Positions 11,224 to 31,125 of a stretch of DNA of 64,000 bases are shown one piece after another. Below the pieces are notes generated by a model that saw only the letters and a program-made list of their open reading frames with translations, made no database searches and had not been told where the DNA came from. Source of the stretch: Candidatus Shapirobacteria bacterium. Lineage in GTDB: Bacteria; Patescibacteriota; Microgenomatia; UBA12405. How positions within the stretch are numbered: the first letter of the stretch is position 1; every line of letters starts with the position of its first letter. The translations under genes and the position numbers were made by a program. Location of the stretch: assembly GCA_016188545.1 (NCBI GenBank), contig JACPHO010000001.1, forward strand, positions 90,774 through 154,773, read 5' to 3'.

Positions 11224-11425
11224 GCAGGTTTGGCCCTCTTTGAGTCTTGCACAAAAAATACTTTCCGACCTCTTCCCAGATAGTCCGCTCTCCGGCGCTC
11301 AAACTAGATTCACCACACCTCGAAACATCATTCATTAGTCTGCTAACGCTGCTGGTTTGGGATACTTATCTGTCTGCATCAGAGGGGATTTTGGTCATTG
11401 GTTATTCCGAATGATAGAATGAGGC

Positions 11426-13219: not shown

Positions 13220-13250
13220 ATTTATCCCGTTCTTTCGTATACAATATAAC

Positions 13251-14339
13251 CCAATGCCAACTCCTCTCAACTTCCCCAAAATAAAACAGTCGTTAGTTGC
13301 CACCGCCAAAAAACTTCACTACCTTACCCAAGATGAGATACTCGCTGTCGTTGCCGAGCCCGAAAAATACATTGACGAAATCGACAATCTCTTTGATTAT
13401 CTTTTCGAAAAAGGTATCGATGTCTTCGATAAAGTCGAGTCTCAGGCTCTAGTTGATGTCAAAAAAGAAAAAGCCAACAATGCCGAGCTTTTGGCCATGC
13501 TTACTCAGAAAAATACTGTCGACTCTGTTCGCATGTATCTCAAGGAGATCGGTAAAATCGATCTTTTGACATTTGCTCAGGAAGTTGAATACGCCAAAGC
13601 CATCGAAAAAGGTTCCGACGAAGCCCGTGCTAACCTTATCAATGCCAACCTTCGTTTGGTAGTTTCTATTGCCAAAAAATACATCGGCCGTGGACTCTCA
13701 TTTTTAGATCTGGTTCAAGAGGGGAACCAAGGACTTATGCGCGCCGTCGAAAAATTCGACTGGAAGCGCGGATTCAAATTTAGCACTTATGCCACCTGGT
13801 GGATTCGTCAAGCCATCACCCGCGCTATCGCCGACCAAGCCAAGACTATCCGTATTCCTGTTCACATGGTCGAAACTATCAACAAAGTTTACAAGGCGAC
13901 TCGCGCCCTTACCCAGCGTCTCGGTCACGAACCATCCATCGAACAAATCGCCGACGAAGTTGGTATCACTATCGAAAAAGTCGAAGAAATTTATCGTATT
14001 TCCCAAGACACCACCTCTCTGGCTACACCAGTCGGTGACGATGAAGACTCGTTTCTGGGTGATTTTATCGAAGACACTACTCAGCTCTCACCCTATGAAG
14101 AAACCAGTATGGAGCTACTTCGCGAATCCATCGAAGAAGTTCTCGAAAGTCTTGACGAGCGCGAATCAAAAGTTCTCTCCCTCCGTTTTGGTCTAATGGG
14201 TGAAACCCCAAAAACCCTCGAAGAAGTCGGCAAGATTTTCAATGTCACCCGTGAGCGCATTCGTCAGATCGAAGCCAAGGCATTGAGAAAGTTGAGACAT
14301 CCAAGCAGACGTAAAAAGTTGCAGGATTATCTAGAATAA
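13251..14339 (+). CDS. rpoD: primary RNA polymerase sigma factor (sigma-70)
   Basis: Region 2 [41 protein letters not shown]. Regions 3 and 4 are present. The start is placed at MPTPLN (13251) rather than the track start 13113, which would overlap dnaG. Confidence 0.95.
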
Positions 14340-14651
14340 ACTATGTTCGACAAACTACTTAGCCCTTTTCCAGCGCAACCCGATGGTAGTCGTTTGCTAT
14401 ATCGCAAATAGACTGCAAGAATAGCCACTGTTGAAGAGATGAGCACGGAGTCAGGATCTGTTGATACATCAAATATTGGCAGAGTAGTCATTACAACTCA
14501 CAAAAATTTTGGCGAACCAATTAAGGTCGAAATCGAACCGGGTCAAGTATCGGTACTTCCTGCCATAAATATCGAAACTACAGTTACACTAATGCCTCGA
14601 AAACCAAAAAGTTAGACCAATAGTTTGTTTTCACTGCAAGACAATAAACTA

Positions 14652-14830
14652 CGTCATTGCGCCTGCCCGCCTCTGGAGGGAGGAGCATTTACCATAGTGA
14701 CCTGCCTACCGGCAGGCAGGCGTGACAACCTCGTTGGAACCTCCACAGCCTCTCGCCACAGTAGCCTCTCGCCACAGTCTTATTTACGTTTTTACTTTTG
14801 TCTTTTGAATTTTGAATTTTTTTTACACAT
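14652..14830 (+). repeat. GC-rich hairpin repeat element copy B plus AT-rich tail module
   Basis: TCATTGCG at 14654. Hairpin CCTGCC-TACC-GGCAGG at 14701-14716. 3' box GACAACCTCGTTGGAACCTCCACAGCC at 14724-14750. Tandem 11-mer TCTCGCCACAG x2. Then TCTTATTTACGTTTTTACTTTTG...TTTTGAATTTTGAATTTT. Confidence 0.6.
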
Positions 14831-14848
14831 TTTGTCATACAATTAGTT

Positions 14849-16093
14849 GTGTCCAAAAAGTTATTTTTCATAGGTTTTTTCCTCATCTCTATTCTCTATC
14901 TTTTTCTCCGTCTTTGGCAGCTTCCTCAAAAACTCGACTTCCGTCTCGATCAGGCTTTCTTTCTCACCGAGAGTAAGTCGACGATCGAGTCATCCACTCC
15001 GCGACTCCTTGGCCCTCCCACATCTAAAATTTTCGAAGGTCGTAGTTTTTATGTCGGATCTAATTACTATTATCTTTTAGGAGTCATCGGTCACCTCAAC
15101 AGTTGGGATCCTTTAGCTATCACCATCTTTTTTATTATTTTCGAATTCATTTTTTATCTCCTTTTTATATATTTTTTGAGACAAAAATTCGGCATAACTT
15201 CCTCCCTTTTAGTCTTTTGGTTTATTGCGGTATCACCTTATTTAGTCGCCCACAGTCGCTTCTTTTGGAATCCTCATATGTTGATACCATTATCAATTAT
15301 TGCGCTATATAGCCTGGAAAAATATATCGCCACTCATAAATATATTTTCCTGATCCTCGCTTCTTTTGCCTGGGGACTGGCTTTCTCCTGTCACTACAGC
15401 CCTATTTTTTGGCTGCCGATTTTTATCTATTTTTTAATCAAGTCGAAACTATTCATAAACCCGCCCGTCCGGCAGGCGGGTCTTAAATCATACCTCATAA
15501 TTCTTCTAGGCATTTTTATTGGCGATCTGCCTTTTTTCATTTTCGAACTCCGCCATCAGTTTTATAACCTCCGGACATTTTTCTTTGTCTACTCCCATTC
15601 CATCGAAAGCGGGGGACTCACCTCCCACTATTTCATCTTCCCCCTTTTAGTTTTTACTTTTTATTTTTTATTTTTGTTTTTTTCTCACCGTCTTGTTCTA
15701 ATTTCTAGTTTCCTGTTTCTCGTTACTACCTATCAATTCTATCTCTACCCCCACTACCCCTCGCTCGGAGCCGTCGCCGGTTGGGATTATCCCACCCAGG
15801 TCAGAGTCGCTGATTATATAAGTAAAAACTGCCCCTCAAACTTTAACGTTGCCGCCACCATACAAGGGGATACTCGTTTTTATGATTTGCGTTTTTTACT
15901 AGAGAAAAATAATTGTCATCCCGATAGTGTCGATGCTTATCCCACTTCCAAAACATTATTTCTAGTTTCACCCCATGATCGATCTCCTGAAGCCGAGACA
16001 GTTTGGGAAGTCGACTCGCTTCGTCCCTTTACTATCACTTCAAAAACCAAGTTAAACGATTTTCTTGATCTCTATTTCCTCACCCGCCTTTAG
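14849..16093 (+). CDS. polytopic membrane protein, possibly GT-C-fold (ArnT/PMT-like) glycosyltransferase
   Basis: 414 aa with more than 10 TM helices. First predicted loop after TM1 carries an acidic motif (RLDQAFFLTE). Family assignment is weak. Confidence 0.4.
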   Translation: MSKKLFFIGFFLISILYLFLRLWQLPQKLDFRLDQAFFLTESKSTIESSTPRLLGPPTSKIFEGRSFYVGSNYYYLLGVIGHLNSWDPLAITIFFIIFEFIFYLLFIYFLRQKFGITSSLLVFWFIAVSPYLVAHSRFFWNPHMLIPLSIIALYSLEKYIATHKYIFLILASFAWGLAFSCHYSPIFWLPIFIYFLIKSKLFINPPVRQAGLKSYLIILLGIFIGDLPFFIFELRHQFYNLRTFFFVYSHSIESGGLTSHYFIFPLLVFTFYFLFLFFSHRLVLISSFLFLVTTYQFYLYPHYPSLGAVAGWDYPTQVRVADYISKNCPSNFNVAATIQGDTRFYDLRFLLEKNNCHPDSVDAYPTSKTLFLVSPHDRSPEAETVWEVDSLRPFTITSKTKLNDFLDLYFLTRL

Positions 16094-16127
16094 TTAGTCT
16101 CCAATTCGTCTCTGGTTTCTTTTTATC

Positions 16128-16156
16128 GTTTTTACTTTTTACTTTTGAATTTTGTT
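16128..16156. repeat. 29-bp AT-rich direct repeat GTTTTTACTTTTTACTTTTGAATTTTGTT, copy 1
   Basis: Identical 29-mer recurs at 16627-16655. The two copies bracket the 155-aa histidine-phosphatase gene. Each copy abuts the stop codon of a minus-strand gene. Confidence 0.7.
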
Positions 16157-16606
16157 TTTATCATCCTGCATTTCCACTGCCACCATCTGTCCATTCTCCA
16201 ACCGTCTTTTATTATCGTCTTGCAGGTAAGAAATCATTTCAATAGTTGAGAGGTGACTAATTACTAAGATTGTATCGTTTGGCTCATGATCGTATCTTAA
16301 ATCATCCAAAAACAAATCAATCTTATCTTTAAAGTGTTCATAATTCTCACTTTTCTTTTTATGTCCCACTAGGCTAGTTAGGTAAATTGGCATATCATCA
16401 TCGCGTACCCGCAATATTTCATCTAGTGTTTGAATACATCTTGGTTTTGGTGAGCAATATATAGCATCAAATTTCTGGTCTTTCAAACTCTCTGCCAGCT
16501 TTATAGCCTGAACCACTCCAACAGCAGTTAAGTTGTTTTCATCTCCAGCAACTTTATAACCCCGATTATGAGCGGATTCTCCATGTCGGACTAATATCAA
16601 TTTCAT
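16139..16606 (-). CDS. histidine phosphatase (phosphoglycerate-mutase family)
   Basis: N-terminal LILVRHGESAHN (RHG catalytic motif). Confidence 0.85.
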   Translation of the reverse strand: MKLILVRHGESAHNRGYKVAGDENNLTAVGVVQAIKLAESLKDQKFDAIYCSPKPRCIQTLDEILRVRDDDMPIYLTSLVGHKKKSENYEHFKDKIDLFLDDLRYDHEPNDTILVISHLSTIEMISYLQDDNKRRLENGQMVAVEMQDDKNKIQK

Positions 16607-16626
16607 ATGCGCTATTTTACAATATA

Positions 16627-16655
16627 GTTTTTACTTTTTACTTTTGAATTTTGTT
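16627..16655. repeat. 29-bp AT-rich direct repeat, copy 2
   Basis: Identical to 16128-16156. Related TTTTTACTTTTGAATTTTG-like tails follow repeat copies B and C. Confidence 0.7.
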
Positions 16656-16661
16656 CTTACT

Positions 16662-17270
16662 CTACACTTCAACTCCCAGTTTTTTGATCTCTCCCATAAA
16701 TTGCTCAAAATCAGTGTACAAAAAGGCACTTATCCCCACACTTTTAGCCGATTCAACAGTTGGGTCAAAGTCATCGGCAAAGGCGATTTCAGATGCCTCC
16801 ACCCCCGACTTTCGTATCAATTCTTCAAACAATTTTTTATCCGGTTTATTAAATCCGACTTCATACGACAGCGCCCAAGCATCAAAATTATCAAGGAATC
16901 CAAACCGTTTTTGCAATCCGCTTATTCGAGCAGGAAAATTACTACTGCAGATTAGTGTTTTGTATCCCTTCTGTCGAACAGTTTTTACAACTTCTACTAC
17001 ATGTTCATTTGCCTCATATCCCTCTATTAGTAAGTCCATTAATTCAGTCGGTGAGGCACTTATTCTCCACTCAGTTGCCGCCCAGCTCCAAAATTCTTCG
17101 TCGCCCATTTTCCCGGTTTTATAAAGTTCGTTCATTTGTTCGCTTTTCAGAAACACCCTTTTAGCTTCATCTTCACTTACACCATATATTCTTCCCAAAT
17201 TAGCTATAAAATTTTCCTTACCCCTCAGAAAATAAACCCCATCCAAGTCAAAAGTAATTGCTTTTACCAT
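16662..17270 (-). CDS. HAD-superfamily hydrolase
   Basis: Motif I ITFDLDGV (DxDG). Overall HAD-like length. Confidence 0.8.
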   Translation of the reverse strand: MVKAITFDLDGVYFLRGKENFIANLGRIYGVSEDEAKRVFLKSEQMNELYKTGKMGDEEFWSWAATEWRISASPTELMDLLIEGYEANEHVVEVVKTVRQKGYKTLICSSNFPARISGLQKRFGFLDNFDAWALSYEVGFNKPDKKLFEELIRKSGVEASEIAFADDFDPTVESAKSVGISAFLYTDFEQFMGEIKKLGVEV

Positions 17271-17665
17271 TTGCCTATTTTATCACTAGCATCAGTACCT
17301 AATTTATCCTTCTATCTCTCAACACTATCCCTGGTTTCATCGTGTTTTTGGCCGGGTCATAAGTTTAGAATATATGATCACTATGACTAAACATCATGTG
17401 TCTATCCAGTGATGACTCTAATAACATTCTGCCAACTTAGGTATCATGTGCAAATTCCGCTGCCACTTCCCTGCACTCCGAACAGACAATTACTTTTTTA
17501 GTTCTTCCGTCAATTGTCCTAACTTCTATTGTTCCCTTGATTTGGGCAGTACTATTATCCATTGGGTATTATAGCCTATATTTGGGTAAATATGTAGGTA
17601 AATTTATTATTTTCAACATAAAGGCATAGCCTACTAATCTGTAGTTCGTTGTATTAATATTAATT

Positions 17666-18343
17666 ATGGGATTTGCAGGAAAAGTGGCTGAAAAAGAGTA
17701 TGCTATTTCTCTAAGAGAAAAAGGTTACTCCTATAATCAAATTCAAAAAATCACCGGACTTTCAAAGGATACTATTTCAAGGTCATGTCGTGACGTAGTT
17801 CTAACTTCACAACAAATTAAACATCTTGAATCTCGGCGTACTGCTGGGCAAATGTTAGCTTCTATTAAGGGAGCAAAAGCCAACCAACTCAAAAGACAAA
17901 TAATGCAACAGCAATTACTTGACGAAGGTATAAAGCAGGTTGGTGAGTTGTCCGTTCGAGATAAATTTATTTTCGGAATCTCTCTTTACCTTGGCGAGGG
18001 TTCCAAAACGGGCAGTGGTGTCGAATTTACAAATTCCGACCCGTCCACGGTTTTGTTCATGTACAGATGGTTTAAAGATTTCTGTGAAATACCCAGTAAA
18101 GACATCAGGGCTAGTCTGTGGATACACGATAATCTAGATGAATCCAAAGCAAAAACATATTGGTCAGAGCTACTCGGAATTAACTTAGATCAGTTTGATA
18201 AGTCATACATCGCCAAAAACAAATTAAATAGCCTTAAAGTACGTAAAAATATTCATCAATACGGTATCATTAAACTAAGATACTATAGTGTAGTTAAATT
18301 ACGCCTAATATTAGGCTGGATAAAAGGTGTACTTTCTGGCTAA
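17666..18343 (+). CDS. HTH-domain protein with a C-terminal LAGLIDADG-like (homing-endonuclease-like) region
   Basis: N-terminal helix-turn-helix (YSYNQIQKITGLSKDTISR). Downstream FIFGISLYLGEGSKTGSGVEFTNSD...IRASLWIHD...LLGI...K resembles a single, variant LAGLIDADG core. It ends 47 nt before the intron-containing tRNA. Confidence 0.3.
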   Translation: MGFAGKVAEKEYAISLREKGYSYNQIQKITGLSKDTISRSCRDVVLTSQQIKHLESRRTAGQMLASIKGAKANQLKRQIMQQQLLDEGIKQVGELSVRDKFIFGISLYLGEGSKTGSGVEFTNSDPSTVLFMYRWFKDFCEIPSKDIRASLWIHDNLDESKAKTYWSELLGINLDQFDKSYIAKNKLNSLKVRKNIHQYGIIKLRYYSVVKLRLILGWIKGVLSG

Positions 18344-18390
18344 CTTGAATGATATAATCATCAAGTTCTCGCACATTTAACAATCAATCT

Positions 18391-18682
18391 TCCCCCTTAG
18401 CTCAGTGGTAGAGCGCTCGCCTGTGAATGAAAATCGCAGCTTTCTCAAGTAATTGAGACTGAAACTCCGGAAGAATTCAGGGAAGCCTAAGATACCTTAC
18501 GGTATTATGGTAATCCTGAGCCGATCCCCAACGCAAAGTTGGGGCAGGTGCAGAGACTAGGTGGTACACCGTTTAGCCTCCGGCTCCTGACTATTGTCAG
18601 GATGAAAAGATAGTCCAGGCCTCAATGAAAGTTGAGGATTCCTGTAAGCGATTGGTCCGAAGTTCGAATCTTCGAGGGGGAG
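18391..18682 (+). tRNA. tRNA-Asn(GUU) split by a group I intron between nt 35 and 36
   Basis: Exons 18391-18424 and 18645-18682 fold into a cloverleaf: acceptor UCCCCCU/AGGGGGA, D-arm GCUC-AGUGGUA-GAGC, anticodon stem CUCGC/GCGAU, loop CUGUUAA, T-arm CGAAG-UUCGAAU-CUUCG. It has U1-A72 and discriminator G73. No CCA is encoded. Confidence 0.7.
18425..18644 (+). ncRNA. group I self-splicing intron (small tRNA-type, no ORF)
   Basis: Recognised pairings: P1 exon CUGU with intron GCAG; P2 TCTCAA/TTGAGA; P6 CCCCAA/TTGGGG; P7 GACTA/TAGTC within conserved CAGAGACTA and AAGATAGTCC elements; P8 CCTGAC/GTCAGG; P9 CCTCAA/TTGAGG. Terminal G at 18644. Confidence 0.75.
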
Positions 18683-18759
18683 CAAGTATAAAAAATACCT
18701 AAAAATACGTAATATATGTGTATGTTATCTCCAACATGGGAGACAAAGTATAATACATC

Positions 18760-19284
18760 ATGAACTTGATACTCCTTGGAGGAAATGGTGTCGAAAATAA
18801 GATGTGGATTGAAAAGATTGAAACCACGCTTAAACCATTATTTTCAACTACCTATATTCAATATTACATGCACTGGCAAAAGGGAGGGGAAATGGTAGAT
18901 ATCAACCTTGAGGCGAACAAGTTGTCAAGCTATGCAAAAGACATTAGGGAATATGTAATTTTTGCAAAATCAGCAGGAATTCTGATAACCGCAAAAGCAG
19001 TTCACGATAATGCCTTAAGACCTGTAAAATGTATTTTCACTGGCATTCCAATAAGTTGGGCAATAAGTAAAGGTTTTGATATATCAAACTGGTTTGAAGG
19101 ATTTAAGGACACCTCCTTAGTGATCCAGCACAACGAAGATCCGTTCGCATCTTCTAAAAACGTATCAGAGTTTATTACCAAGGAAAATATGATTAACACA
19201 AATTTGGTCGAACTTCCGGGGAATACACACGATTACCTTGAGTACGATAGAATAAAAAAAATAGTCGCGGATTTTGTCTACTAA
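18760..19284 (+). CDS. hypothetical protein (possibly alpha/beta-hydrolase-like)
   Basis: 174-aa ORF. First gene of the islet downstream of the tRNA. Weak fold guess only. Confidence 0.3.
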   Translation: MNLILLGGNGVENKMWIEKIETTLKPLFSTTYIQYYMHWQKGGEMVDINLEANKLSSYAKDIREYVIFAKSAGILITAKAVHDNALRPVKCIFTGIPISWAISKGFDISNWFEGFKDTSLVIQHNEDPFASSKNVSEFITKENMINTNLVELPGNTHDYLEYDRIKKIVADFVY

Positions 19285-19395
19285 CTGTCTATACGACCAT
19301 AATGCTTTGGATCGAGTTTGATACGTTTAACATCTTTCATCTATATTGATACATATAGTGATATAATCCACAGAAATTAAGAAAACAGTCAATTT

Positions 19396-20736
19396 ATGGC
19401 AACGGAACAAATAAGATACTACGATGTTTCCATAAATCAGAACATGTCACAGCTAACCGGACAGACTCTAGACACCGCAGAGCTAGTTGGCCGAAAAATT
19501 GCCGCGGACCCAATATTGTTTAAATCGAGAGGTTTAGTCGACCAAATCGGAAACTTTGACTTTGATCCAATTGGTATCAAAAAGTCTTCGCGGTGGGAAT
19601 CAGCTGTTGCCACGATGATATATGCAATTTCAGATCAAATACCAAACCGGGAAGAGATAAAAAGAGGAAGACAGATCATTGAAGTACTACCAAAAAGCAT
19701 AAAAGAGCAAATAAACAGAGAATTTATACTGGGTTTTCTGCCATACTTTTTAACTGGATTCAACTTCCACACTGGTGATCATTTTGTTGAAGATTCAAAT
19801 ACCGTCAAAGACGGCGCCACTTTTATTGAAGAGGTCCATGGAAAAACAGAAATACGCACAAGTTCACTGCTATGTGCACACCGTGAATCACATAAAGTCA
19901 AAGAGCTTTCTCTAAGAGATCATATACACACGACAAAAGCAGTAAGGGCACTTAATCTTTTTTTTGGTTTAGTAGGTAACAGCACCAGCCAAACATCAAT
20001 CATCGATTGGTATCAGCAATTTTCTACTAAAAGAGCATCATCAAACATATTTCCCGAAATTTTTATTGGCTATCTTAAGACCGGGAAAATTAGTGACCTC
20101 GTGAGGGTATTAGATTTACATCAAAGAGAACTCGAACAATTAATGGCTAATGCCACCAGAGTAGATACAAATATTTCACTAAAATCACTTGATCTCTTTA
20201 CAACCCAAGTGGAGACTTTTTTATCTGATAGATACGGTGTGGATTGGGCAAGTCACGAGAAACCCGGCCAGTCAGACGCACTGACTGATATAACAACAGG
20301 ATTCACCCTTCCAGAAGTAACTAGATTGATGCCGTTTTATGGACAATCTGCGGCGGAAATACGTACTCTTGAAGCCTATCGTCAAATAAATATTGATATG
20401 GCCGAAGATCAAAGAGAAAGCGATCTTGTAAAGCAGATATTTGATTGGTTTGTTCAAAACCAACGAATGACGAAATACAGTAAAGCTCTTTTTGAAACAG
20501 CTCAGTACTACTTATGGGGCTCTACTTCAGCCAGGGACGGTTTAGTTTGTCTAGGCATCGACCGTGACCACAGTAATTATCAGCGTCTAGCATTTCAACA
20601 AGGTTTTCTTGATACGCAAGGAACAACCAACGTTAAGAATGTTCCTTTGTTGTACGCCAGAAGACGGGACGCTGAAACGTCAAAAGGAATATTAAGTGAA
20701 ATATCGTTTAGACAGTTTTGGAGAGATACAAATTAG
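19396..20736 (+). CDS. hypothetical protein
   Basis: 446-aa ORF. Overlaps the transketolase start by 19 nt, so it probably sits in the same operon. Confidence 0.5.
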   Translation: MATEQIRYYDVSINQNMSQLTGQTLDTAELVGRKIAADPILFKSRGLVDQIGNFDFDPIGIKKSSRWESAVATMIYAISDQIPNREEIKRGRQIIEVLPKSIKEQINREFILGFLPYFLTGFNFHTGDHFVEDSNTVKDGATFIEEVHGKTEIRTSSLLCAHRESHKVKELSLRDHIHTTKAVRALNLFFGLVGNSTSQTSIIDWYQQFSTKRASSNIFPEIFIGYLKTGKISDLVRVLDLHQRELEQLMANATRVDTNISLKSLDLFTTQVETFLSDRYGVDWASHEKPGQSDALTDITTGFTLPEVTRLMPFYGQSAAEIRTLEAYRQINIDMAEDQRESDLVKQIFDWFVQNQRMTKYSKALFETAQYYLWGSTSARDGLVCLGIDRDHSNYQRLAFQQGFLDTQGTTNVKNVPLLYARRRDAETSKGILSEISFRQFWRDTN

Positions 20737-22676
20737 AATCTAATATGCCAACAGAAAGACATCGTGATTCAGATAAACTAACAGCATTATCTTTAGAAAT
20801 TAGACGTTCAGTATTCCAAACAATTGTTGATGCTAAAAGCGGACACCTTGGGGGTAACTCTTCTTCAGTCGAGTTGCTGACATGTCTTTATTTTGGAGGA
20901 ATATTAAGGTTTGATCCAGCAAATCCAAAAGCTGAAAACAGAGACAGGGTCTTGATTAGGGGACACGAGGGCCCAGTCCGATATAAGATTTTTAGTTTAA
21001 TGGGCTTGTTTCCCGAGGAAGAGCTGAAAACATATCGGCAATTTGGGTCAATACTACAGGGTCATGAAGACATGCATACCACTCCCGGTGTCGATATAAC
21101 CCCATCTGGTTCTCTTGGAATGGGACTTTCATATGGCATCGGTTGCGCCATATCCGCCAAAGAAAAAGAGCTAGATTATAGAACATTCGTATTTTTAGGT
21201 GATGGAGAAGAACAAGAAGGAAATGTGAGTGAGGCGGCAAGACACGCAACTAGTGCTGGACTTAATAACCTTATCTGTATACTTGATAAAAACGACAAAC
21301 AATTATCTCGGCCGACTGTCGAATCTGACGGTGGTGCCGACGTAAAAACAATCTGGCGGGGTTATGGTTGGAACGTTATTGAGGTTGAAGATGGTCACGA
21401 CATTGAACAAGTAATGGCCGCTTATTCCAAGCTTGATTATATCCAAAAACCAACCCTTATCATCGCTCATACGATTAAAGGAAAAGGAATCCCTGGTGCT
21501 GAGGAGAATTACTGCGGTTTCCATACTCTTAGTGTTTGTCCACCAGAGTCAGCTCGGTTTGCATTAAATAATGCAACTCAGGAGGTTGAGGCTCGCCGTG
21601 CAGAAGTTGACGCAGTCACATTACACACCAAAGATATGGTTAGACGTCCAAACGTAGCTCCATTGATCACTACAGTGAGTGAGATACCCACCATTGAGGT
21701 TGAAGTTGATCCTAATGACAATCGTAATTTGGATAATTCGCAAGGATTTTATTTCGATAAGCTTAGGCAGGCAACTCGAAATGGAGAATCGATGAAATTA
21801 TACGTTTTGACCCCCGACTTTATTAGAAAAGATACTGTTGAACAGGTGTCATTTCATGAGTTCGCTAGATATATTGACGCAGGAATAAGGGAGCAACACA
21901 CAATTGCCATGGCCCATGGGATATCCATTACCGATCCGTCTGCTAGAATTTTTATCAATTTCGGCGATGCCTTTATTTATAGAGCTATGGATCAGCTTAA
22001 TGCAGCTGCCCAAGGAGGAAGTAGAATGTTAATAATCGGGGAACATAGTGGTCTAACACAGGAAAGAAATGGCAAAACTCATCAGACAAGTGGTCAACCA
22101 GGGGCCCTAGTCAATATGCCTGGTCTAACATTTAAAGAACCTGCCGATGTCCAAGATCTTTATAATGTCCTAAATTGGGCGTTCACTAATAATCCTGGAG
22201 TTATTTATGCCAGAATACACCGTAAAAACATCACTCAGCTATATAGAGAGGAAAAAGACAAACGTAATATTACCTCATACATAACTCACGATCCAGGTAA
22301 AAAACCAGGGCTTGTTATTGTTGGTAGTGGATTCACAACCCAAAACTCAGTCGAGGCTGCAAAAATACTGGAGTCAAAACATGGAATTCCGACTCGGGTT
22401 ATAAATGTTGTTGGGCCAGTAGAACTTGGTGATAACTTTGTTGGTCAAACTGAAGATGGTGTACCGCTTCTTACAGTCTATAATGGCAATAGAAGAGTAT
22501 TACAATCAATGGTGAGTCTGGCAATCATGGATTCAACCGTCGCCCGTCCCAGTGTAATAAAAAGTCATGGTTTTGACTATGGGACAACAGGAGGGATCAA
22601 AGACCTTGAGAAGCACTTCCAACTGGATAGTGAAGGTATAGTCCAAGTAGTTAGAAATTCGTTTTCGATTTCATGA
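20718..22676 (+). CDS. tkt: transketolase
   Basis: N-terminal SGHLGGNSS. RDRVLIRGHEGP. TPGVDITPSGSLGMGLSYGIGCAI. ThDP motif LGDGEEQEGNVSEAA. Then LICILDKND. 652 aa. Confidence 0.85.
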   Translation: MERYKLESNMPTERHRDSDKLTALSLEIRRSVFQTIVDAKSGHLGGNSSSVELLTCLYFGGILRFDPANPKAENRDRVLIRGHEGPVRYKIFSLMGLFPEEELKTYRQFGSILQGHEDMHTTPGVDITPSGSLGMGLSYGIGCAISAKEKELDYRTFVFLGDGEEQEGNVSEAARHATSAGLNNLICILDKNDKQLSRPTVESDGGADVKTIWRGYGWNVIEVEDGHDIEQVMAAYSKLDYIQKPTLIIAHTIKGKGIPGAEENYCGFHTLSVCPPESARFALNNATQEVEARRAEVDAVTLHTKDMVRRPNVAPLITTVSEIPTIEVEVDPNDNRNLDNSQGFYFDKLRQATRNGESMKLYVLTPDFIRKDTVEQVSFHEFARYIDAGIREQHTIAMAHGISITDPSARIFINFGDAFIYRAMDQLNAAAQGGSRMLIIGEHSGLTQERNGKTHQTSGQPGALVNMPGLTFKEPADVQDLYNVLNWAFTNNPGVIYARIHRKNITQLYREEKDKRNITSYITHDPGKKPGLVIVGSGFTTQNSVEAAKILESKHGIPTRVINVVGPVELGDNFVGQTEDGVPLLTVYNGNRRVLQSMVSLAIMDSTVARPSVIKSHGFDYGTTGGIKDLEKHFQLDSEGIVQVVRNSFSIS

Positions 22677-23350
22677 AAAAAAGAATCCTTATGGTTGGAG
22701 GTTGCTCGAAAATTGCGTCACATTTTATTAAAAGACATCATCGTAAATTCATTATTGACATTACTACTCATTCCAGTGTTCCAACTGGATTACCAGATTC
22801 GGTTAATAATTTTTCATTAGACCTTTCCGAAAATAGTTCAATTAAAAAACTATCGAGACAATTAGTCAACTATCGCTATGACGGAATATTATTCTTTTCT
22901 GGCACATACTGGGCAGATGAATGTAGCAACCAAAAAAAACTAGAAGAATCAATAAAAGTAAATTTTTTGAGTAGCCTTGAGTTGTTGGATAGCCTTAAAT
23001 TAAATAATAGTTCTAAAATAATATTTTTTACAGATGAAGGTATTTCCCAACCCAAAAGAAACTATCTTTCATATTCATTTTCAAAAGCATTGCTACAAGA
23101 TTATATTAGGCTACTTGCAGTTAAATACTCGTCTACCTCTTCGGTAATTGGCATCGGATTGGGACCAACAGTAACAGATAAAACAGGACAAGATAAAGTC
23201 AAGTATTTTTCTAAAAGTCTAATCTCTGTAAAAAATCCGTGTTTGGGTTTAGTGAACTTAATTAATTTTATTATTGGCGAAGATAACTTTTACTCAACTG
23301 GAAGAATATTACCCTTTGATGGTGGTACATATATCCGAAGGACAAATTAA
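22673..23350 (+). CDS. Rossmann-fold NAD(P)-binding protein (SDR-like)
   Basis: N-terminal ILMVGGCSKIASHF glycine-rich turn. ATGA overlap with the tkt stop. Confidence 0.45.
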   Translation: MKKRILMVGGCSKIASHFIKRHHRKFIIDITTHSSVPTGLPDSVNNFSLDLSENSSIKKLSRQLVNYRYDGILFFSGTYWADECSNQKKLEESIKVNFLSSLELLDSLKLNNSSKIIFFTDEGISQPKRNYLSYSFSKALLQDYIRLLAVKYSSTSSVIGIGLGPTVTDKTGQDKVKYFSKSLISVKNPCLGLVNLINFIIGEDNFYSTGRILPFDGGTYIRRTN

Positions 23351-23351
23351 C

Positions 23352-23942
23352 TCAGCTTTTGTTGGTAGATAGCCTAGAATTTTCTATGTCCCTGAAAAAC
23401 TGGTCAATAAAGTCATTTCTATGAAGTAACTCCCCAGTTTTTATCGTGGTTTTTGTAACAAAGTCACTTTTTTTAACGCCTCTCATGCTCACACACAAAT
23501 GCTCTGCCCCCACATGAACAATAAGTCCCTTGGGATGCAAGTTTTTCTCTATTGATTCTGATAGTTGATTTGTTAAGTTCTCCTGAGTTTGTAGTCTTTT
23601 CGAGAAAGAATCAACTAGCCTAGCAAATTTAGATAAACCCAACACCTTTCCATTTGGAACATACCCAATGTGAACCTTCCCTTAAAATGGAATCATATGG
23701 TGTTCGCATAAACTATAGAAACTTATGTTTGCGACTGTAATTAGTTCGTGATAACCGTTGCTTTCAAACGTCTTAAATATTGAGACGATATCGTCGTTAT
23801 AACCAGAGAATAACTCCTTGTACATCTTTATTACCCGCTGGGGTGTCTCAACTAAACCCTCCCTCCCAGCATCTTCCCCAAGATAAGTAAGTAAGCCTTT
23901 TATCAAATCCGTTGCATATTTATCGTTTTTTTGCGTCTCCAT
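23352..23942 (-). pseudogene. folE: GTP cyclohydrolase I (folE) interrupted by one in-frame TAA
   Basis: N-part ...REGLVETPQRVIKMY...CEHHMIPF, then TAA (plus-strand TTA at 23682-23684), then in the same frame GKVHIGYVPNGKVLGLSKFARLVDSFSKRLQTQE...VHVGAEHLCVSMRGV. The stop replaces the aromatic residue that is Tyr in B. subtilis FolE and Phe in E. coli FolE. Confidence 0.85.
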
Positions 23943-24229
23943 AGATTATATCTTTTACTTATTTGCGTAATTATACGATTATTATGCTCACAGTCAAGAT
24001 ATGAACATAAACTAACTTTGGTATATCAAATACATAGTTCCTCTCCCAACCAATTACGTAAACAAGTAAAGTTTCGGTATATATACCATATCTCTGAGTA
24101 TTAAGTAGTGAAAATAGGCATAAAGTTGCTATGTAGACTAGAATTTAGGTAAGTTTTAACCCATTCCTCTATCCGAGTACTATCCCAACGAGGGAGCACT
24201 TCGGCAAGCTCAGTGCAAGCTTGTCAAAA

Positions 24230-24532
24230 ATGAAAACAGAAAATTGGTATACATACATTCTTTTGTGCGATCAGAAAACTTCTTATGTCTGAATAACAAA
24301 TGATTTAAAAAGTCATATAAATAGTCATAAATCAAAACAAACATTTTTTACAAAAAAGTTTTCTGATATACGATTAGTATATTGCGAAAAATACGGAACC
24401 AACCATGAAGCTGCTCTTCGTGAAAAACAAATCAAAGGATGGAGCCGCACAAAAAAGCAAATGTTGATTGAAGGTAAACTAGGAATCAATCGCTACACTG
24501 AGTTTGACGAAATTCTTTCCCATTTAGATTGA
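24230..24532 (+). pseudogene. small GIY-YIG nuclease-superfamily gene (YhbQ/UPF0213-like) with in-frame TGA at the conserved Gly
   Basis: Manual translation: MKTENWYTYILLCDQKTSYV-TGA(24290)-ITNDLKSHINSHKSK...FSDIRLVYCEKYGTNHEAALREKQIKGWSRTKKQMLIEG... The TGA sits where the G of the Y-[IV]-G motif is expected. Confidence 0.65.
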
Positions 24533-24561
24533 ACCTTGTGAGTTTACTTCGAGCGAAGCCG

Positions 24562-24610
24562 AGAAGAATCCTCGAGGGGGAGCATTAAAAAAGTCCGACA
24601 AAAATGGCGG
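24562..24610 (+). repeat. direct repeat of the tRNA-Asn 3' end (att-like)
   Basis: GAATCCTCGAGGGGGAGCA (24566-24584) matches tRNA 3' end GAATCTTCGAGGGGGAGCA (18666-18684) at 18/19 positions. The following approximately 25 nt are also similar (TAAAAAA...CC...AAAAAT in both). Same orientation, 5.9 kb apart. Confidence 0.6.
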
Positions 24611-24751
24611 ATTTTTTAATGTCTTCTTCAGAATATCAGAATTACCAAAGGCAGTTGAGCTTGTACCTTTTTTCTTCCCCCTTCTCTATGATTGGCACAC
24701 CTAAATACCCCATGGTATTGACAAAATCGCAATATTAACCTATAATACGAA

Positions 24752-25699
24752 ATGCGTACCAAACTCGTCATGACTCTGGTGACTCGGGATGAAGACGATA
24801 TTCTCGAAAAAAACATTTGTTTTCACCTTAACCACGGAGTTGACTTTATTGTTGCTGTTAACAACGGTTCAAAGGACAGTACTCGCCACGTCTTGGAGAA
24901 ATACGCCAGAATTGGACTTCTGGCCTATAAAAACGTACCCGAGCATACCAAAGAACAAAGCCGTTGGGTTACAGATCTAGCCAATCTCGCTGTCAAAAAG
25001 TATCACGCTACTCATCTTATCCATGTTGACACCGATGAATTTTGGTTCCCAAAATCCGGCAACCTAAAGAATCATCTTCCTGTTAACCGGCAGGTTGGTC
25101 TTGTTCCCTCGTTAAATTATCTACCGCCTTCATTTGCACAAAAACTGTCTTTAAAACGCACCGTTGTTTCCCACCCTTACTCTCGCCATGCTCTTTTTCA
25201 AACCGATGAAAGTTATCGTTTCTTGCTATTTGCCCAACAACCCAAAGTTGCCACCACTAGCCATCACACCCACATAGCCCAAGGTAACCATTTGGTTATT
25301 AGCCCTGGACGTGTTAAGTATTTACCGATAAATGGAATCACTATCCACCATTTTCCCATCCGTTCTTTTGCCCAGTTCAAAACCAAGGTCAAAAATGGTG
25401 GTTCCGCCTACCTCAACCATCCTCATTCTAACCCGGGAATTGGATGGCATCAAAAAAGCTGGTACCACTATTTTCAACAAGGACTACTGCTCGATGTCTA
25501 CCATCAGCTAACCATTTCCGCTTCCGAAAAACGTCTACTTTTTAACAATGGCAATTTATCAAACATTCGACTACCCTTATCCATTCTATGCGCTCCGATA
25601 ATATTTACTCTCAAAAGATATTATCTCCGTCTTGTAGCTATTCGTTCACAATTTAATTCGTTCCGTCAAAAACTTGTACTAAACCCGGCTTTCGATTAA
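24752..25699 (+). CDS. glycosyltransferase family 2-like protein
   Basis: N-terminal LVMTLVTRDEDDILEKNICFHLNHGVDFIVAVNNGSKDST and acidic HVDTDEFW motif, as in GT2-like family proteins. Confidence 0.55.
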   Translation: MRTKLVMTLVTRDEDDILEKNICFHLNHGVDFIVAVNNGSKDSTRHVLEKYARIGLLAYKNVPEHTKEQSRWVTDLANLAVKKYHATHLIHVDTDEFWFPKSGNLKNHLPVNRQVGLVPSLNYLPPSFAQKLSLKRTVVSHPYSRHALFQTDESYRFLLFAQQPKVATTSHHTHIAQGNHLVISPGRVKYLPINGITIHHFPIRSFAQFKTKVKNGGSAYLNHPHSNPGIGWHQKSWYHYFQQGLLLDVYHQLTISASEKRLLFNNGNLSNIRLPLSILCAPIIFTLKRYYLRLVAIRSQFNSFRQKLVLNPAFD

Positions 25700-25827
25700 G
25701 TTAATACGCCGCCTTCCATATTTCACCTAACACTGGAAGCGTGCGCAATAGGACTTATTTTTAAACTAAAATAGGTCCTGATTTTTCGTACCATCATGGA
25801 CATTTGAACCTTTGGTAGAATTGACCA

Positions 25828-26949
25828 ATGACAATTGACTCAGTTAGTGAAAATCTTTTCAAAATTGCCTTGTATTTGGAAAAACTAATACCAGGCATGG
25901 TATCTGAGGTTTGGATTGACGATGATTTGTTAAATCATCTCAAAAATAACCTCCCGGACCAAAGTAATGTATTGGATTTAATTTGTCAAACAAAATCTCT
26001 CATTAGAGAGATTTTAGATGAGAAAAGAAAGCAATATCTGAAAGAAGTTCTACAAAGCCTGGAATTTCAAATAAATAGTGCAGATAAAAAACTTCCATAT
26101 GAGGTAATTTCCGAAAAAACATTTGGTTATAAAATCACCAGAGTTGGGGAAAAAGACATTCGGATAATTGAAGAAAAAATTAGAGATTTGGAAACCAAAA
26201 TTGGTCTCTCTCGCCAAGAAATCTATATTAAAAACTTGGTTAATCCAGAAGAGTACAAATCAGTTTTTGAGAAAAATATTCAAACAGTCAAAGATAAACT
26301 ACCCGCTAGTATATTGGATTTCCCAGATGGAGGTTTTCTCTTTGAAACTACAATCAATAAACCTTGGAGTGCTTTTAACTCTCATATTGCTCCCTTCAAA
26401 TCAAAATTGACTCTAAACACTGATTTACATTTCAATACCTATGACTTATTTCGTCTATCTTCACACGAAGCTTACGGTGGACACCATTCTGAGCTATCAA
26501 ATAAAGACAAGCTACTTGTAGAAAGAGGTTTTGGTGAGCATGGGTTAGTTATCAATCTCAGTCCCCAGACTTTTATAAGCGAAGCTATCGCTGAAGGGAT
26601 TTATATACTTCTCAAAATTGCTGATGAATCAAATCTTGAGGAACAACTAACTTGGTACTATAACCGGCTTACTTTTGCCCTACAAAATTTGGCTACATTT
26701 TTATATAACGATGACGGAAAAAGCGTTGAGGAGATAAGAAAGACGATTAGTGAATACTATATTTCTGATGCCACCGTTAACCTGATAGTCAACTTTTCTA
26801 CTGATCCGGTATTTGGTAAATACGCACCGGTCTATTATTCTGCCTTCAACTTCCTATCTGACCTCTTTCAAAAATCGTTAAACAAAAATGAACTAATAGA
26901 AACGTTATTTACAAAACCATGTACTCCAGAGCTGTTAACAAAAAAATAG
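25828..26949 (+). CDS. hypothetical protein
   Basis: 373-aa ORF with His-rich SSHEAYGGHHSE segment. No confident family. Confidence 0.45.
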   Translation: MTIDSVSENLFKIALYLEKLIPGMVSEVWIDDDLLNHLKNNLPDQSNVLDLICQTKSLIREILDEKRKQYLKEVLQSLEFQINSADKKLPYEVISEKTFGYKITRVGEKDIRIIEEKIRDLETKIGLSRQEIYIKNLVNPEEYKSVFEKNIQTVKDKLPASILDFPDGGFLFETTINKPWSAFNSHIAPFKSKLTLNTDLHFNTYDLFRLSSHEAYGGHHSELSNKDKLLVERGFGEHGLVINLSPQTFISEAIAEGIYILLKIADESNLEEQLTWYYNRLTFALQNLATFLYNDDGKSVEEIRKTISEYYISDATVNLIVNFSTDPVFGKYAPVYYSAFNFLSDLFQKSLNKNELIETLFTKPCTPELLTKK

Positions 26950-27161
26950 CTAGTCAATATCCACACGTCGCCTTCCCGATTTCCTCTAACGCTGGGGGCA
27001 CTAAAGTACAGAAACAACCACTAAATTTCACAAACGGACAACACAACAAATTAATATTCCCCAGATACATGTAAGGAATTGCGCATACAAACCTTACATC
27101 CCATATGCTGATGTTAGGTTTCATGAAAATTGTCAAAAGAGTTATACTTGTCTTGATTTAT

Positions 27162-28180
27162 ATGATTAAAAAACTACCAGACAATCAAATAGCTTTCTAT
27201 CAAACTCCTGACGGGTCGGTAAATATCGAAGTACTGTTTGCGGAAGAGAATATCTGGCTTACCCAGAAGAAGATGGCTGAGCTTTTCGATTGCTCGATAG
27301 ATAATATTTCGCTTCATTTGAAGAATATTTATCAAGAAAATGAGGTTTATCAAGAGTCAACTATCGAGGAATTCTCGGTAGTTCAAAAAGAGGGAGACAG
27401 AGAAGTTTCCCGAAAGGTTACTTTCTATAGTCTTGAGGCAATTATTGCTGTTGGTTACAGAGTCAGTTCTGAGCGGGGTGCACAGTTTCGCCAGTGGGCA
27501 ACCGGAATTTTGAAAAACTATATCCACAAAGGTTATGTCCTGGATACTAATCGGATGAAGTATGGTTCCCGCTTTAGCGCGAGGTATTTTGACGAGCTTT
27601 ACGAAGAAATTAAGGACATCCGTACCAGTGAACGGATGATCTATCAAAAAATCACTGATATTTATGCCACAGCAGTTGATTACTCGCCACAGGCGTATGA
27701 GAGTAAACAGTTTTTTGCGACTGTTCAAAATAAACTTCATTTTGCCATTACTGGTAAAACCGCCGCAGAAATCATAGTGGAACGTGTCAGCAAAATAGAA
27801 AAGAAAAAATGGGATTGACTTCCTGGAGGCGATCTCCAGAAGGCAAAATTATGCCAAGTGATGTTACAATCGCGAAAAATTATCTGGATAAAAAGGAGCT
27901 GGCTCATCTCAATAGCATCGGCAATATGTATTTGGATTACGCTGAGTTACAAGCCGCTCGTGGCAGAGCTATGACGATGAAAGATTGGGTAGAAAAACTT
28001 AACGCTTTTTTGAAGTTTAGTGAATACGAAATTTTAACCAATGCTGGAAAAATTAGTCATGAAGTGGCCGAGACCTTAGCATTAAAGGAATATGAGGTAT
28101 TTAAAAAAGAGCAGGACAAACACTACATTTCCGACTTTGACAAAGTGGTCAAAAAATTGCTCAAGAGCAAAAATAAATAA
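27162..28180 (+). pseudogene. RhuM-family virulence/defence protein, frameshifted in a poly-A tract
   Basis: N-part QIAFYQTPDGSVNIEVLFAEENIWLTQKKMAELF...VGYRVSSERGAQFRQWATGILKNY. C-part MGLTSWRRSPEGKIMPSDVTIAKNYL...MYLDYAEL lies in the other frame. Restoring one A in GAAAAGAAAAAATGG (about 27795-27809) fuses them. Confidence 0.8.
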
Positions 28181-28181
28181 C

Positions 28182-28928
28182 ATGAACCCGCCTGACTTTA
28201 CTCTCGATAAAATCAAGTTTGCGACAGATGGGCCGACGTTTGAAAAGGCCGTAGCTTTGTATGAAAGCGACAAGGTAACTCAAGTCGAAGAGGGTATCAG
28301 ATCGTATACGGCAGTTGTTAAGGGTACAAAACCATATCGAGTCTCAGTAGAAGCCAGACGATACGATTATGGCCATTGCACCTGCTATTTAGGAGCCAGT
28401 GGCACACTTTGTAAGCATATGGTTGCTTTGGCAATTTATGCGGTTCAAGACGGAAAGCCATTAACTGCCGATAATAAAAAGATAGTTCAAAATCCAGTTT
28501 GTAGTGGAAAGTTGGGTACTTTATCAGAGAATGAGTTACTTACTGTAAAACAGACGATTACCACTTCTTTGAAATACATCAAAGCTTACACTGGTCCGTC
28601 TCGTACCTGGTTTGTCTACCAAAATTCGCTCTCCGAAGGTTGCAACCGTTTATCTGCTGTAATCTCTGATTTACCCGTAAGTATCCAAACAACTGGATTG
28701 TTGGTTGATTTACTTTTAAGATTGGACAAGAAACTATGTACTGGCGGAGTTGATGACTCGGATGGTGAAGTGGGCGGGTTCATTGAGGAAGTGGTGGAGG
28801 TGTTGCAGGAATTTGTTAAGCTGGATCCGAGTTGCGTCACTGCTTTTGATAAGTTGAAAAATAGAGAAACATGTTTTGGCTGGGAGAAGCCGTTGCTGAA
28901 TCTTTTCAAAAATGCAAGAAGTGATTGA
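28182..28928 (+). CDS. SWIM zinc-finger domain protein
   Basis: CxC-x(n)-CxH signature YDYGHCTCYLGASGTLCKHMVALAIYAV. Start placed at MNPPDF (28182). Confidence 0.65.
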   Translation: MNPPDFTLDKIKFATDGPTFEKAVALYESDKVTQVEEGIRSYTAVVKGTKPYRVSVEARRYDYGHCTCYLGASGTLCKHMVALAIYAVQDGKPLTADNKKIVQNPVCSGKLGTLSENELLTVKQTITTSLKYIKAYTGPSRTWFVYQNSLSEGCNRLSAVISDLPVSIQTTGLLVDLLLRLDKKLCTGGVDDSDGEVGGFIEEVVEVLQEFVKLDPSCVTAFDKLKNRETCFGWEKPLLNLFKNARSD

Positions 28929-29133
28929 TTTCCTTGAGCGTATATTCTGGATATTCTAAGTAATTAATACAATCAATTGTTCGAAAGTCCTCCCATTTCT
29001 CGAGCCATAGTAGACAGTCCTCGTAAGTTCTTGATATAAAATCCTTGTAGTTGTGACCTGAGAATGTAATAAATTTACACTCAGAAGTCAAGGGAGCTTT
29101 TTTTGTTAGAGCCCGTCCTTGACACGTTTCCAC
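28906..29133 (-). CDS. hypothetical small protein
   Basis: 75-aa ORF between the SWIM and AbiEi genes. Weak. Confidence 0.25.
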   Translation of the reverse strand: METCQGRALTKKAPLTSECKFITFSGHNYKDFISRTYEDCLLWLEKWEDFRTIDCINYLEYPEYTLKEINHFLHF

Positions 29134-29156
29134 AAACTGTCTAATATTGACAGTAT

Positions 29157-29747
29157 ATGGAATCGTATAGTTTAAGCCTATTGACTAAAAAGTTGCTGGA
29201 ATCCGGCCTGACTCTCGTAAATTCTCAAACTTTAAGAAGTCTCCTGGGAATAAAAAATGAAAGGACCTATTATCGCATAGTCAAAGACTTTATAAAAAAC
29301 AATGTCCTCATAAGTATTGAAAAGAATAAATATTCTATTACTGGTAAAAGTATAAATACTTTTGAAATAGCCAATTTTCTTTACCAACCTTCTTATGTGT
29401 CCCTTGAAACAGCTCTCAATCATTGGGGTGTTTTGTCCCAGTTTCCCTTCGAAATTACAAACATCACTTCCAAGAAAAGTGTCAAAAAAAATATTGATGG
29501 CAAAATATATAGCTACAATCATATAGCACCCAAGTATTTCGGTATGTTCACCAAAAAAAATAATATATTAATTGCCCTCCCTGAAAAAGCCCTCTTCGAT
29601 CAGCTCTATTTGGCCTCGAAAGGTCTTAAATCAATTAATTTTGATGAATACGACTTTAAGAAAATTAGCAAAAATATTTTTTTTGATATTTGTCATCAGT
29701 TAAAAGCCGATCAAAGCTTAATGAACTTAGTTAAAAACCTTAAATAA
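29157..29747 (+). CDS. AbiEi-like antitoxin / transcriptional regulator (type IV TA)
   Basis: 196 aa with an N-terminal wHTH-like region. Sits 4 nt upstream of an AbiEii-family gene, in the canonical AbiEi-AbiEii arrangement. Confidence 0.55.
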   Translation: MESYSLSLLTKKLLESGLTLVNSQTLRSLLGIKNERTYYRIVKDFIKNNVLISIEKNKYSITGKSINTFEIANFLYQPSYVSLETALNHWGVLSQFPFEITNITSKKSVKKNIDGKIYSYNHIAPKYFGMFTKKNNILIALPEKALFDQLYLASKGLKSINFDEYDFKKISKNIFFDICHQLKADQSLMNLVKNLK

Positions 29748-29750
29748 TTT

Positions 29751-30518: not shown

Positions 30519-30600
30519 TTTCATCCATGGCGTTGAGCACTTCTTCCATCTGACTATTATGATGAAACTATTCTCGAATCTTTTAACGGTATAATGGGAT

Positions 30601-31056: not shown

Positions 31057-31125
31057 TAGTTCTAAAATTATTCCTTGTCCGAGAGTATTTGTACTACCGT
31101 AGGCATGCGAGTCCCAAAATCTCAT

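Follow-up and report, generated by a model that had tools for sequence, protein, structure and literature searches.

Probable composite insertion behind an intron-containing tRNA-Asn gene of Candidatus Shapirobacteria, with a decayed GIY-YIG cassette at its distal end

In a 64-kb stretch of DNA from Candidatus Shapirobacteria (Microgenomates, candidate phyla radiation, CPR), referred to here as the window, the 3' end of a tRNA-Asn(GUU) gene recurs 5.9 kb downstream of that gene, which raises the question of what brought in the DNA between the two copies. A sequence-only reading of the window took the copies as attL and attR of a single integrated element that had lost its integrase. Comparison with homologous contigs and genomes (labelled L0xx) leads us to conclude that the 5.9-kb stretch after tRNA-Asn is a genuine insertion. 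It is probably a composite one (18685-24584), made of a 5.5-kb gene cluster (18685-24188) and a decayed mobile GIY-YIG cassette whose target duplicate is the 19-nt distal repeat, and we favour a nuclease-driven, homing-like insertion as its origin. Genes of the window were read with genetic code table 11.

The displaced tRNA flank and the GIY-YIG cassette

The proximal copy of the repeat, GAATCTTCGAGGGGGAGCA at 18666-18684, runs from G57 of the T-loop to two nt past the discriminator, and the distal copy, GAATCCTCGAGGGGGAGCA at 24566..24584 on the same (+) strand, corresponds to tRNA nt 57-74 plus an A and is identical to it at 18/19 positions. The mismatch lies at position 62, which is C in the distal repeat and T in the resident tRNA; the C62 variant is the tRNA-Asn sequence of another Shapirobacteria species (L013). 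The existence of a same-orientation copy with one mismatch, as stated in the sequence-only reading, was confirmed as non-random: these two are the only 19-mer matches in the 64 kb at ≤3 mismatches, 0/100 shuffles gave two, and the local alignment of the tRNA 3' exon with 24530-24584 was better than 2000/2000 shuffles. About 25 nt of flanking sequence had also been said to recur with the repeat, a claim that did not hold, since 18685-18730 aligns with 24585-24630 no better than 656/2000 shuffles. The flanks of the two copies in fact differ in kind. At 18685, the tRNA gene continues into unstructured AT-rich DNA (no significant structure at 18685-18740), whereas the distal copy is followed by a terminator hairpin (24585-24617; -10.5 kcal/mol, z = -2.8). 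This hairpin belongs to the native tRNA-Asn 3' flank (24585..24629, +), which matches the flank of tRNA-Asn in L014, where the hairpin reaches -15.9 kcal/mol (z = -5.9).

A scan for the 19-mer over one genome per species yielded two other Shapirobacteria, L013 and L014, and the latter retains an empty site. The upstream gene and intron-containing tRNA-Asn of L014 are collinear with the window (72% over 1.26 kb), and its tRNA 3' end runs directly into TATTAAAAAAGTCCGTCAAAAAATGACGGATTTTTTAATATCTTCTTCC, a sequence that sits only after the second repeat in the window; the L014 flank matches the window at 89.6% over 67 nt including the repeat and at 91% over 46 nt of pure flank. Because the L014 tRNA is contiguous with its terminator, the native 3' flank in the window must have been displaced by 5.9 kb. 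A second filled/empty pair is formed by L018 and L019: at a comparable tRNA-Asn locus, L019 lacks the ~400 nt (forward cassette plus repeat) present in L018. Third-position GC of the islet is atypically low, at 0.32 compared to 0.42 in 21 background ORFs (open reading frames), and lower than in every four-gene background group. The earlier view of a true insertion at the tRNA 3' end is thus upheld both by the alignment to relatives and by third-position GC.

A Logan assembly of SRR12113420, from the same sample, is base-for-base equal to window 7666-27386. Since this independent assembly is identical, the repeats and the two in-frame stops described below are not artefacts of one assembler, the two assemblies sharing one sample; exact-protein matches for two flanking genes were confined to their own contig. 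Outside the CPR, the 19-mer was matched four times (Bryobacterales, Chloroflexota, Archangium, and Rhodococcus), which we take to be about the number expected by chance. An exact 19-nt tRNA-Asn end also occurs in L015 (Portnoybacteria) at 1670-1688. It could be a chance match or an orphan remnant, and neither a tRNA nor an intron nor a GIY-YIG gene lies nearby.

The distal repeat directly abuts the right end of a decayed GIY-YIG cassette of 367 bp (24199..24565, +). The cassette begins with the left end CTTCGGCAAGCTCAGTGCAAGC (24199-24220), a 22-mer that is unique in the window (0 expected by chance), followed by an ORF of 100 aa after repair (24230-24532, +) and by a degenerate right end of 33 nt between the ORF and the repeat (24533-24565, +). 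The repaired ORF matches PF01541 GIY-YIG (E = 1.9e-14), and the TGA at its codon 21 (24290-24292) stands where all 19 aligned homologues have a Gly. A reading of this TGA as Gly (code 25) was considered and rejected, as long contiguous ORFs tile the window under table 11 and the folE gene of the islet is broken by TAA; the standard code fits the window, and the GIY-YIG ORF is therefore a pseudogene. With its nonsense codon at an invariant Gly, its degenerate right end and its eroded left repeat, the window cassette is dead.

The repaired protein has 392 homologues at E < 1e-8, with identities of 56-99% among the best 120 of 392. Homologues in the 19-sequence alignment are 91-105 aa long and consist of the catalytic domain, with no separate DNA-binding module. 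The family profile matched two solved UPF0213 proteins, 1zg2 (BH0048; E = 1.1e-10) and 1ywl (EF2693; E = 1.1e-7), and on these sequence matches we assign the cassette protein to the Slx1/UPF0213 GIY-YIG family, in single-domain form.

Immediately to the left of the cassette, at 24189..24198 (+), lies CGAGGGAGCA, which equals CGAGGGGGAGCA minus 2 nt (two G) and whose position is suggestive of a further, decayed copy of the tRNA-Asn end; counting it, the repeat at 24566 is the third. The same cassette left end is preceded by GAGCA in L076, L082 and L086 and by an intact tRNA 3' end in L078, L079 and L085. The islet would be composite because the distal repeat touches the right end of the cassette and this separate tRNA-end remnant touches its left end. 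The gene cluster may have arrived separately, through another event at this hot spot, or may have been copied in together with the cassette; homologous recombination or an integrase working in trans may also have delivered it.

The cassette behind other tRNA genes

We read the genomic contexts of six homologues (L076, L078, L079, L082, L085, and L086), and 6/6 show a discrete unit of 360-391 bp, such that the window-type cassette is present at six other independent CPR loci. Its left end is conserved as (A)CTTCGGCAAGCTCAG. Nucleotide homology starts exactly at the position of window 24199, with the motif CTTCGGCAAGCTCAGTGCA(A/G)GC, in L076, L078, L085, L082 and L086, and the left end of L079 was matched through an exact 15-mer; this left 15-mer is identical in 6/7 copies, with one mismatch in L082. 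Left and right ends are inverted complements of each other (21/23 positions in L078). Terminal inverted repeats are significant in 5/7 cassettes (≤2/1000 shuffles), being degenerate in the window and in L079, and the minimum-energy RNA fold pairs both ends in 6/7.

A copy of the tRNA 3' end follows the cassette at 6/6 of the other loci, comprising 18-19 nt (nt 57-74) in five and 12 nt in L076. In three of these (L078, L085, and L079), no other inserted DNA lies between the tRNA and the cassette, which starts one nt past position 74 of a tRNA-Gln (L078, L085) or of an intron-containing tRNA-Asn (L079). Behind each of the three cassettes comes an exact 18-nt duplicate of the locus's own tRNA, from G57 to nt 74 (GAATCCTAGCTCCCCAAC, GAATCCATGTCCCCCAGC and GAGCCCTACCGGGGGAGC), and directly after each duplicate stands the CA of the native CCA. 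The order is then tRNA, cassette right after nt 74, duplicate of nt 57/58-74, and native flank.

Five window-type repeats begin at T-loop G57 and that of L018 at A58, the exception being the truncated 12-nt copy in L076. The 18-nt repeats are identical to the resident tRNA in L078, L079, L082, L085 and L018, and their sequence is of the tRNA-Gln type in L078 and L085 and of the tRNA-Asn type in L079 and L082, with constant cassette ends throughout. Since the repeat varies with the target while the ends do not, it appears to derive from the target rather than from an unchanging attachment site (attP).

The layout of the window is mirrored in L082 and L086, where tRNA-Asn is followed by 1.7-2.3 kb of other genes, GAGCA plus the cassette, and an 18-19-nt tRNA-end copy; the intervening genes of L082 are a second GIY-YIG gene and an HNH gene. 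The same geometry was found for a more distant relative in L018, a JGI metagenome contig, in which an intron-containing tRNA-Asn ends at 11100, an 80-aa GIY-YIG gene lies 22 nt on, and an exact 18-nt tRNA-end copy (11436-11453) is followed by a terminator of the L014/window type.

Three of the compared loci carry more than one such remnant. In L069, three extra 3'-end copies of tRNA-Gly(GCC) occur within 700 nt (13055-13740), the last two of which (GCGGGCCTACCCGCACAC) bracket a GIY-YIG gene; the two GIY-YIG genes and the HNH gene of L082 lie at 2370-4332, downstream of tRNA-Asn; and L018 has a reverse-strand GIY-YIG fragment (11510-11698) and a second copy of the left junction (12516-12557). 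Selfish-gene remnants accumulate behind tRNA genes at these loci.

Mechanism, alternatives and relation to known systems

The anatomy of the cassettes, the empty sites and the tracking of the target by the repeat are observations; the mechanism that we infer from them would run as follows. A nuclease would cut the unoccupied tRNA gene with a stagger, one strand at ~56/57 and the opposite strand at ~74/75, and each 18-nt 3' overhang would prime on one of the donor's two repeats. Such priming would need terminal microhomology only (GAATCC on one side, GCA or ACA on the other). Copying of the cassette would then leave the recipient's own 18 nt on both sides, with the tRNA intact, and whatever the donor carries between its tRNA and its distal repeat would be copied along with it. 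A process of this kind would account for the register of the repeat and its match to the target. It would also explain why the tRNA stays intact and why a transposase is lacking, and possibly how cargo could hitch-hike.

In its broadest form, which we propose tentatively, this explanation would define a new class of minimal mobile element in CPR bacteria: a ~370-bp cassette encoding a bare Slx1-like GIY-YIG protein between complementary ends, which inserts after tRNA nt 74 and duplicates nt 57-74, the breaks in tRNA genes giving rise to hot spots that capture, and possibly co-mobilise, cargo such as the five-gene cluster here. A literature search (open-access papers and bioRxiv) returned no description of such a GIY-YIG cassette, which is apparently undescribed.

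Several points weigh against a nuclease-driven insertion. The role of the nuclease is deduced from its position, and the protein is a bare catalytic domain without a DNA-binding module. The candidate remnant at 24189-24198 is not significant when aligned by itself (212/2000 shuffles). The repeat of L086 mismatches the resident tRNA-Asn and that of the window differs by 1 nt, so that some repeats moved along with the cassette or as part of larger segments, a pattern also compatible with plain homologous recombination. Among the distant GIY-YIG genes, the one in L050 lies after tRNA-Gly without a repeat and the one in L058 has no tRNA nearby, and the sample is small, with seven independent window-type cassettes and about four more distant GIY-YIG genes. 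Integrase att sites, too, usually take the form of a repeat that spans the tRNA from T-loop to 3' end. The Slx1/UPF0213 family, moreover, is usually seen as a vertically inherited repair enzyme (PMC1564403).

A classical integrase islet is the strongest competitor, although we regard it as doubtful. In that case, the cluster and a GIY-YIG passenger would have entered by recombination between attP and the tRNA-Asn end, the 19-mers would be attL and attR, and the integrase would have been deleted later or would act in trans on a cis-mobilisable element. The att-like geometry of the direct repeat, the empty site in L014 and the atypical composition all agree with this, as does C62 of the right copy, which equals the L013 tRNA-Asn as expected from an incoming attP. 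No integrase was found between 7.6 and 36 kb, however: Pfam gave no integrase, recombinase or transposase domain on ORFs at 16.6-36.2 kb, PHROGs (ORFs at 17.7-29.7 kb) and NCBIfam (ORFs at 17.7-26.9 kb) gave no recombinase, and neither did precomputed Pfam results for the upstream genes from 7.6 kb. In L090, a large serine recombinase is encoded 2.5 kb from the cluster, which would favour an integrase, but it overlaps a tRNA-Leu of opposite orientation at the latter's 3' end, and any element of its own would lie beyond that tRNA, on the far side from the cluster; we therefore rejected it as the cluster's mover. Repeats of the same geometry, furthermore, bracket GIY-YIG cassettes of 0.35-0.39 kb alone after three different tRNAs, and within the islet the window cassette forms a separate unit, touched by the right repeat and by the left tRNA-end remnant. 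The 19-mer, finally, has no match among 2.9 million viral contigs. A viral origin was rejected on this ground and because the GIY-YIG profile led to one weak viral locus and PHROGs to nothing meaningful for the islet proteins.

These results separate what can be kept of the sequence-only reading from what cannot. Its islet without an integrase agrees with the Pfam, PHROGs and NCBIfam searches over the spans given above, and its decaying integrated element survives as a real, decaying insertion at a tRNA gene, although the agent and the single-unit nature were wrong; a reading of the repeats as attL and attR of one element that lost its integrase is not supported, given that the distal one abuts a separate 367-bp cassette. 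The resemblance to tRNA-targeting integrative islands nevertheless extends to the site at the tRNA 3' end, the direct repeat from the T-loop to that end, the intact tRNA, the unoccupied site, the cargo and the arrays. Unlike such islands, the present elements show no integrase or other recombinase and no fixed attP core, their duplicate follows the target (Asn or Gln), and the minimal unit is ~370 bp.

Less probable still is a hot spot that needs no enzyme, at which related CPR DNA would be patched in by homologous or microhomology recombination at tRNA copies, with the GIY-YIG gene as a passive passenger. The region after tRNA-Asn does differ in 4/4 Shapirobacteria-like relatives (window, L013, L014, and L018), a 5.2-kb insert in L014 has flanking repeats of ~125 nt, as would result from Campbell-type homologous integration, and the L086 mismatch noted above is easily placed here. 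Recombination of this sort leaves unexplained, however, why the cassettes are of constant length with complementary ends, why they start exactly past nt 74 in both tRNA-Gln and tRNA-Asn, and why the duplicate starts at nt 57/58 and matches each target. The sequence-only reading had itself offered a second, degraded tRNA as an alternative, and a remnant of a second tRNA-Asn from a tandem duplication is very improbable: a tRNA-type terminator does follow the right 19-mer, but its tRNA sequence is limited to nt 57-74, alignment of the 3' exon stops there on the left, where the cassette right end lies, and L014 shows that the terminator belongs to a single tRNA-Asn.

A nuclease-driven insertion invites comparison with homing endonuclease genes. 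Free-standing homing genes are presumed to spread by double-strand-break repair that co-converts the flanks. Enzymes of the Seg/I-TevI type, members of the HEase/UvrC branch, bind DNA through a separate domain and produce neither a target duplication nor inverted ends. SegB of phage T4, cited in PMC13096335, is an example of a free-standing GIY-YIG homing endonuclease gene, and it lies in a tRNA gene cluster. The cassettes resemble free-standing homing genes in being small GIY-YIG genes beside tRNA genes, present or absent between relatives at one locus; the nuclease domain is there, and so is the presence/absence pattern (L014, L019), without a DNA-binding module. They differ from Seg and I-TevI in their bare ~98-aa Slx1/UPF0213 domain, their inverted ends, and the 18-nt duplicate that rebuilds the tRNA.

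Transposons offer a second comparison, as the cassettes have inverted ends (5/7) and a target-derived duplication; no transposase (DDE, HUH, serine or tyrosine) is encoded, the GIY-YIG gene being the sole ORF. Casposons reportedly have terminal inverted repeats, a target-site duplication of ~14-15 bp and, in some families, integration at tRNA 3' ends; their length is several kilobases or more, and their genes include those for Cas1 and a DNA polymerase. In joining inverted ends to a long duplication at the tRNA end, the cassettes are casposon-like, whereas neither Cas1 nor a family B polymerase is among the islet domains. Finally, the cassette protein is like the UPF0213 proteins 1zg2 and 1ywl in sequence family and in its single domain, but its gene behaves as a discrete insertion at tRNA genes, unlike the family as described, with vertical inheritance and a role in repair (PMC1564403).

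If the cassette is autonomously mobile, the Slx1/UPF0213 branch, treated as housekeeping repair, would hold selfish elements. The chemistry would be unusual, as an 18-bp target-derived duplication would arise at tRNA 3' ends without an integrase or a transposase, and the elements would provide a route for gene flow and for variable regions beside tRNA genes in the tiny genomes of CPR bacteria. For annotators, repeated tRNA 3' ends would then not automatically be integrase att sites. Loci of this kind are easily missed, since intron-split tRNAs are invisible to ARAGORN.

The tRNA-Asn intron, the gene cluster and neighbouring variable DNA

The tRNA-Asn gene of the window is split by a predicted group I intron of 220 nt in the anticodon loop (18425..18644, +). 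Its 5' exon (18391..18424, +) ends in CCTGT after anticodon position 35 and is identical across the window, L013, L014 and L017; its 3' exon (18645..18682, +) ends with the discriminator G at 18682. The Rfam model RF00028 (Intron_gpI) matches 18415-18637 with 69.8 bits (gathering score 50; E = 1.1e-15), and the boundaries were placed canonically for group I introns, with the 5' exon ending at U18424 and the intron at G18644. ARAGORN called zero tRNAs on the unspliced window because the intron splits the gene, and recognised a canonical tRNA-Asn(gtt) once 18391-18424 was joined to 18645-18683; the covariance score and this splicing to a canonical tRNA together assign the predicted intron to group I. 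Homologous introns occur in the same tRNA of L017, L018, L019, L020 and L079 (Woesebacteria by source name), and an intron in tRNA-Asn of L013, L014 and L082 (Gottesmanbacteria) was read from the sequence. The tRNA-Asn of L086 (Woesebacteria by source name) is intronless. Our literature search turned up no earlier case of a bacterial tRNA-Asn with a group I intron.

The cargo of the islet consists of five genes, and the inventory in the sequence-only reading (a 174-aa protein, a 446-aa unknown, transketolase, short-chain dehydrogenase, folE and GIY-YIG) was correct, as was its recognition of two inactivated genes, folE by an in-frame TAA and GIY-YIG by an in-frame TGA. The first gene (18760..19284, +) encodes a 174-aa alpha/beta-hydrolase-like protein; the Pfam domain Abhydrolase_11 is present in its homologues from L003, L006 and L090. 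The second (HYV64_00695; 19396..20736, +) encodes a 446-aa protein with no Pfam, PHROG or NCBIfam match, the predicted fold of which resembles class I aminoacyl-tRNA synthetase catalytic domains, cyclodipeptide synthases and PvcA. The third product is a transketolase-like thiamine-diphosphate enzyme of 652 aa (20718..22676, +), with matches to Transketolase_N (1.1e-38) and Transket_pyr (3.6e-15) and to NCBIfam transketolase models below their cut-offs. It is followed by a short-chain dehydrogenase gene (22673..23350, +), whose product matches dihydromonapterin reductase and pteridine reductase best, though weakly, and by folE, encoding GTP cyclohydrolase I (23352..23942, -). The in-frame TAA of folE lies at 23682-23684; the two halves share one frame and both match PF01227, the repaired protein scores 214 bits against NCBIfam FolE, and a strong promoter-like site lies by the gene on the minus strand (23997-23970).

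The cluster recurs in Woesebacteria (L003), Roizmanbacteria (L006), L009 and L090 with other neighbours and other gene orders, L009 lacking the transketolase gene and L090 having the gene order of the window; in these four, no GIY-YIG gene and no tRNA adjoins the cluster. It appears to specify an uncharacterised biosynthetic pathway that is so far known almost only from Microgenomates, with one distant homologue in Gracilibacteria.

Further variable DNA was noted around the tRNA-Asn locus and its counterparts. The 5.2-kb insert of L014 after tRNA-Asn is flanked by its repeats of ~125 nt at 2407-2530 and 7609-7725, each of which begins within the final 8 nt of the tRNA, takes in 115 nt of flank and contains the terminator; a further tRNA-end-like remnant, GAAATCCTCGAGGGGTGC, lies at 2514-2531. 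Seven ORFs of at least 80 aa in this insert gave no informative Pfam or PHROG match, and the insert looks like the product of homologous recombination. In L013, a hairpin with a 13-bp stem directly follows tRNA-Asn, and the same hairpin is found in the window at 25749-25780, after a glycosyltransferase gene (24752-25699) preceded by a perfect TTGACA-17-TATAAT promoter (24718-24746). All DNA from 18685 to 25750 is additional when compared with L013, and a second layer (24630-25822) is present at the same hot spot. The L013 ORF after tRNA-Asn was considered as a homologue of the 373-aa ORF of the window and rejected, as just a 74-nt hairpin region is common to both.

Beyond this layer, 27105-36165 of the window is a variable, defence-rich stretch. 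It includes a RhuM-family gene split by a frameshift (27105-27818 and 27809-28180), an AbiEii toxin gene (29751-30518), and a C5 cytosine methyltransferase gene (34136-35446) that adjoins a gene for an EcoO109I-like restriction enzyme (35452-36165). Upstream of the tRNA gene, a 37-nt direct repeat with 95% identity (16124-16160 and 16623-16659) brackets a His_Phos_1 gene (16139-16606, minus strand), and L013 lacks the adjacent PMT_2 and HAD genes, which are found between rpoD and a 225-aa ORF in the window.

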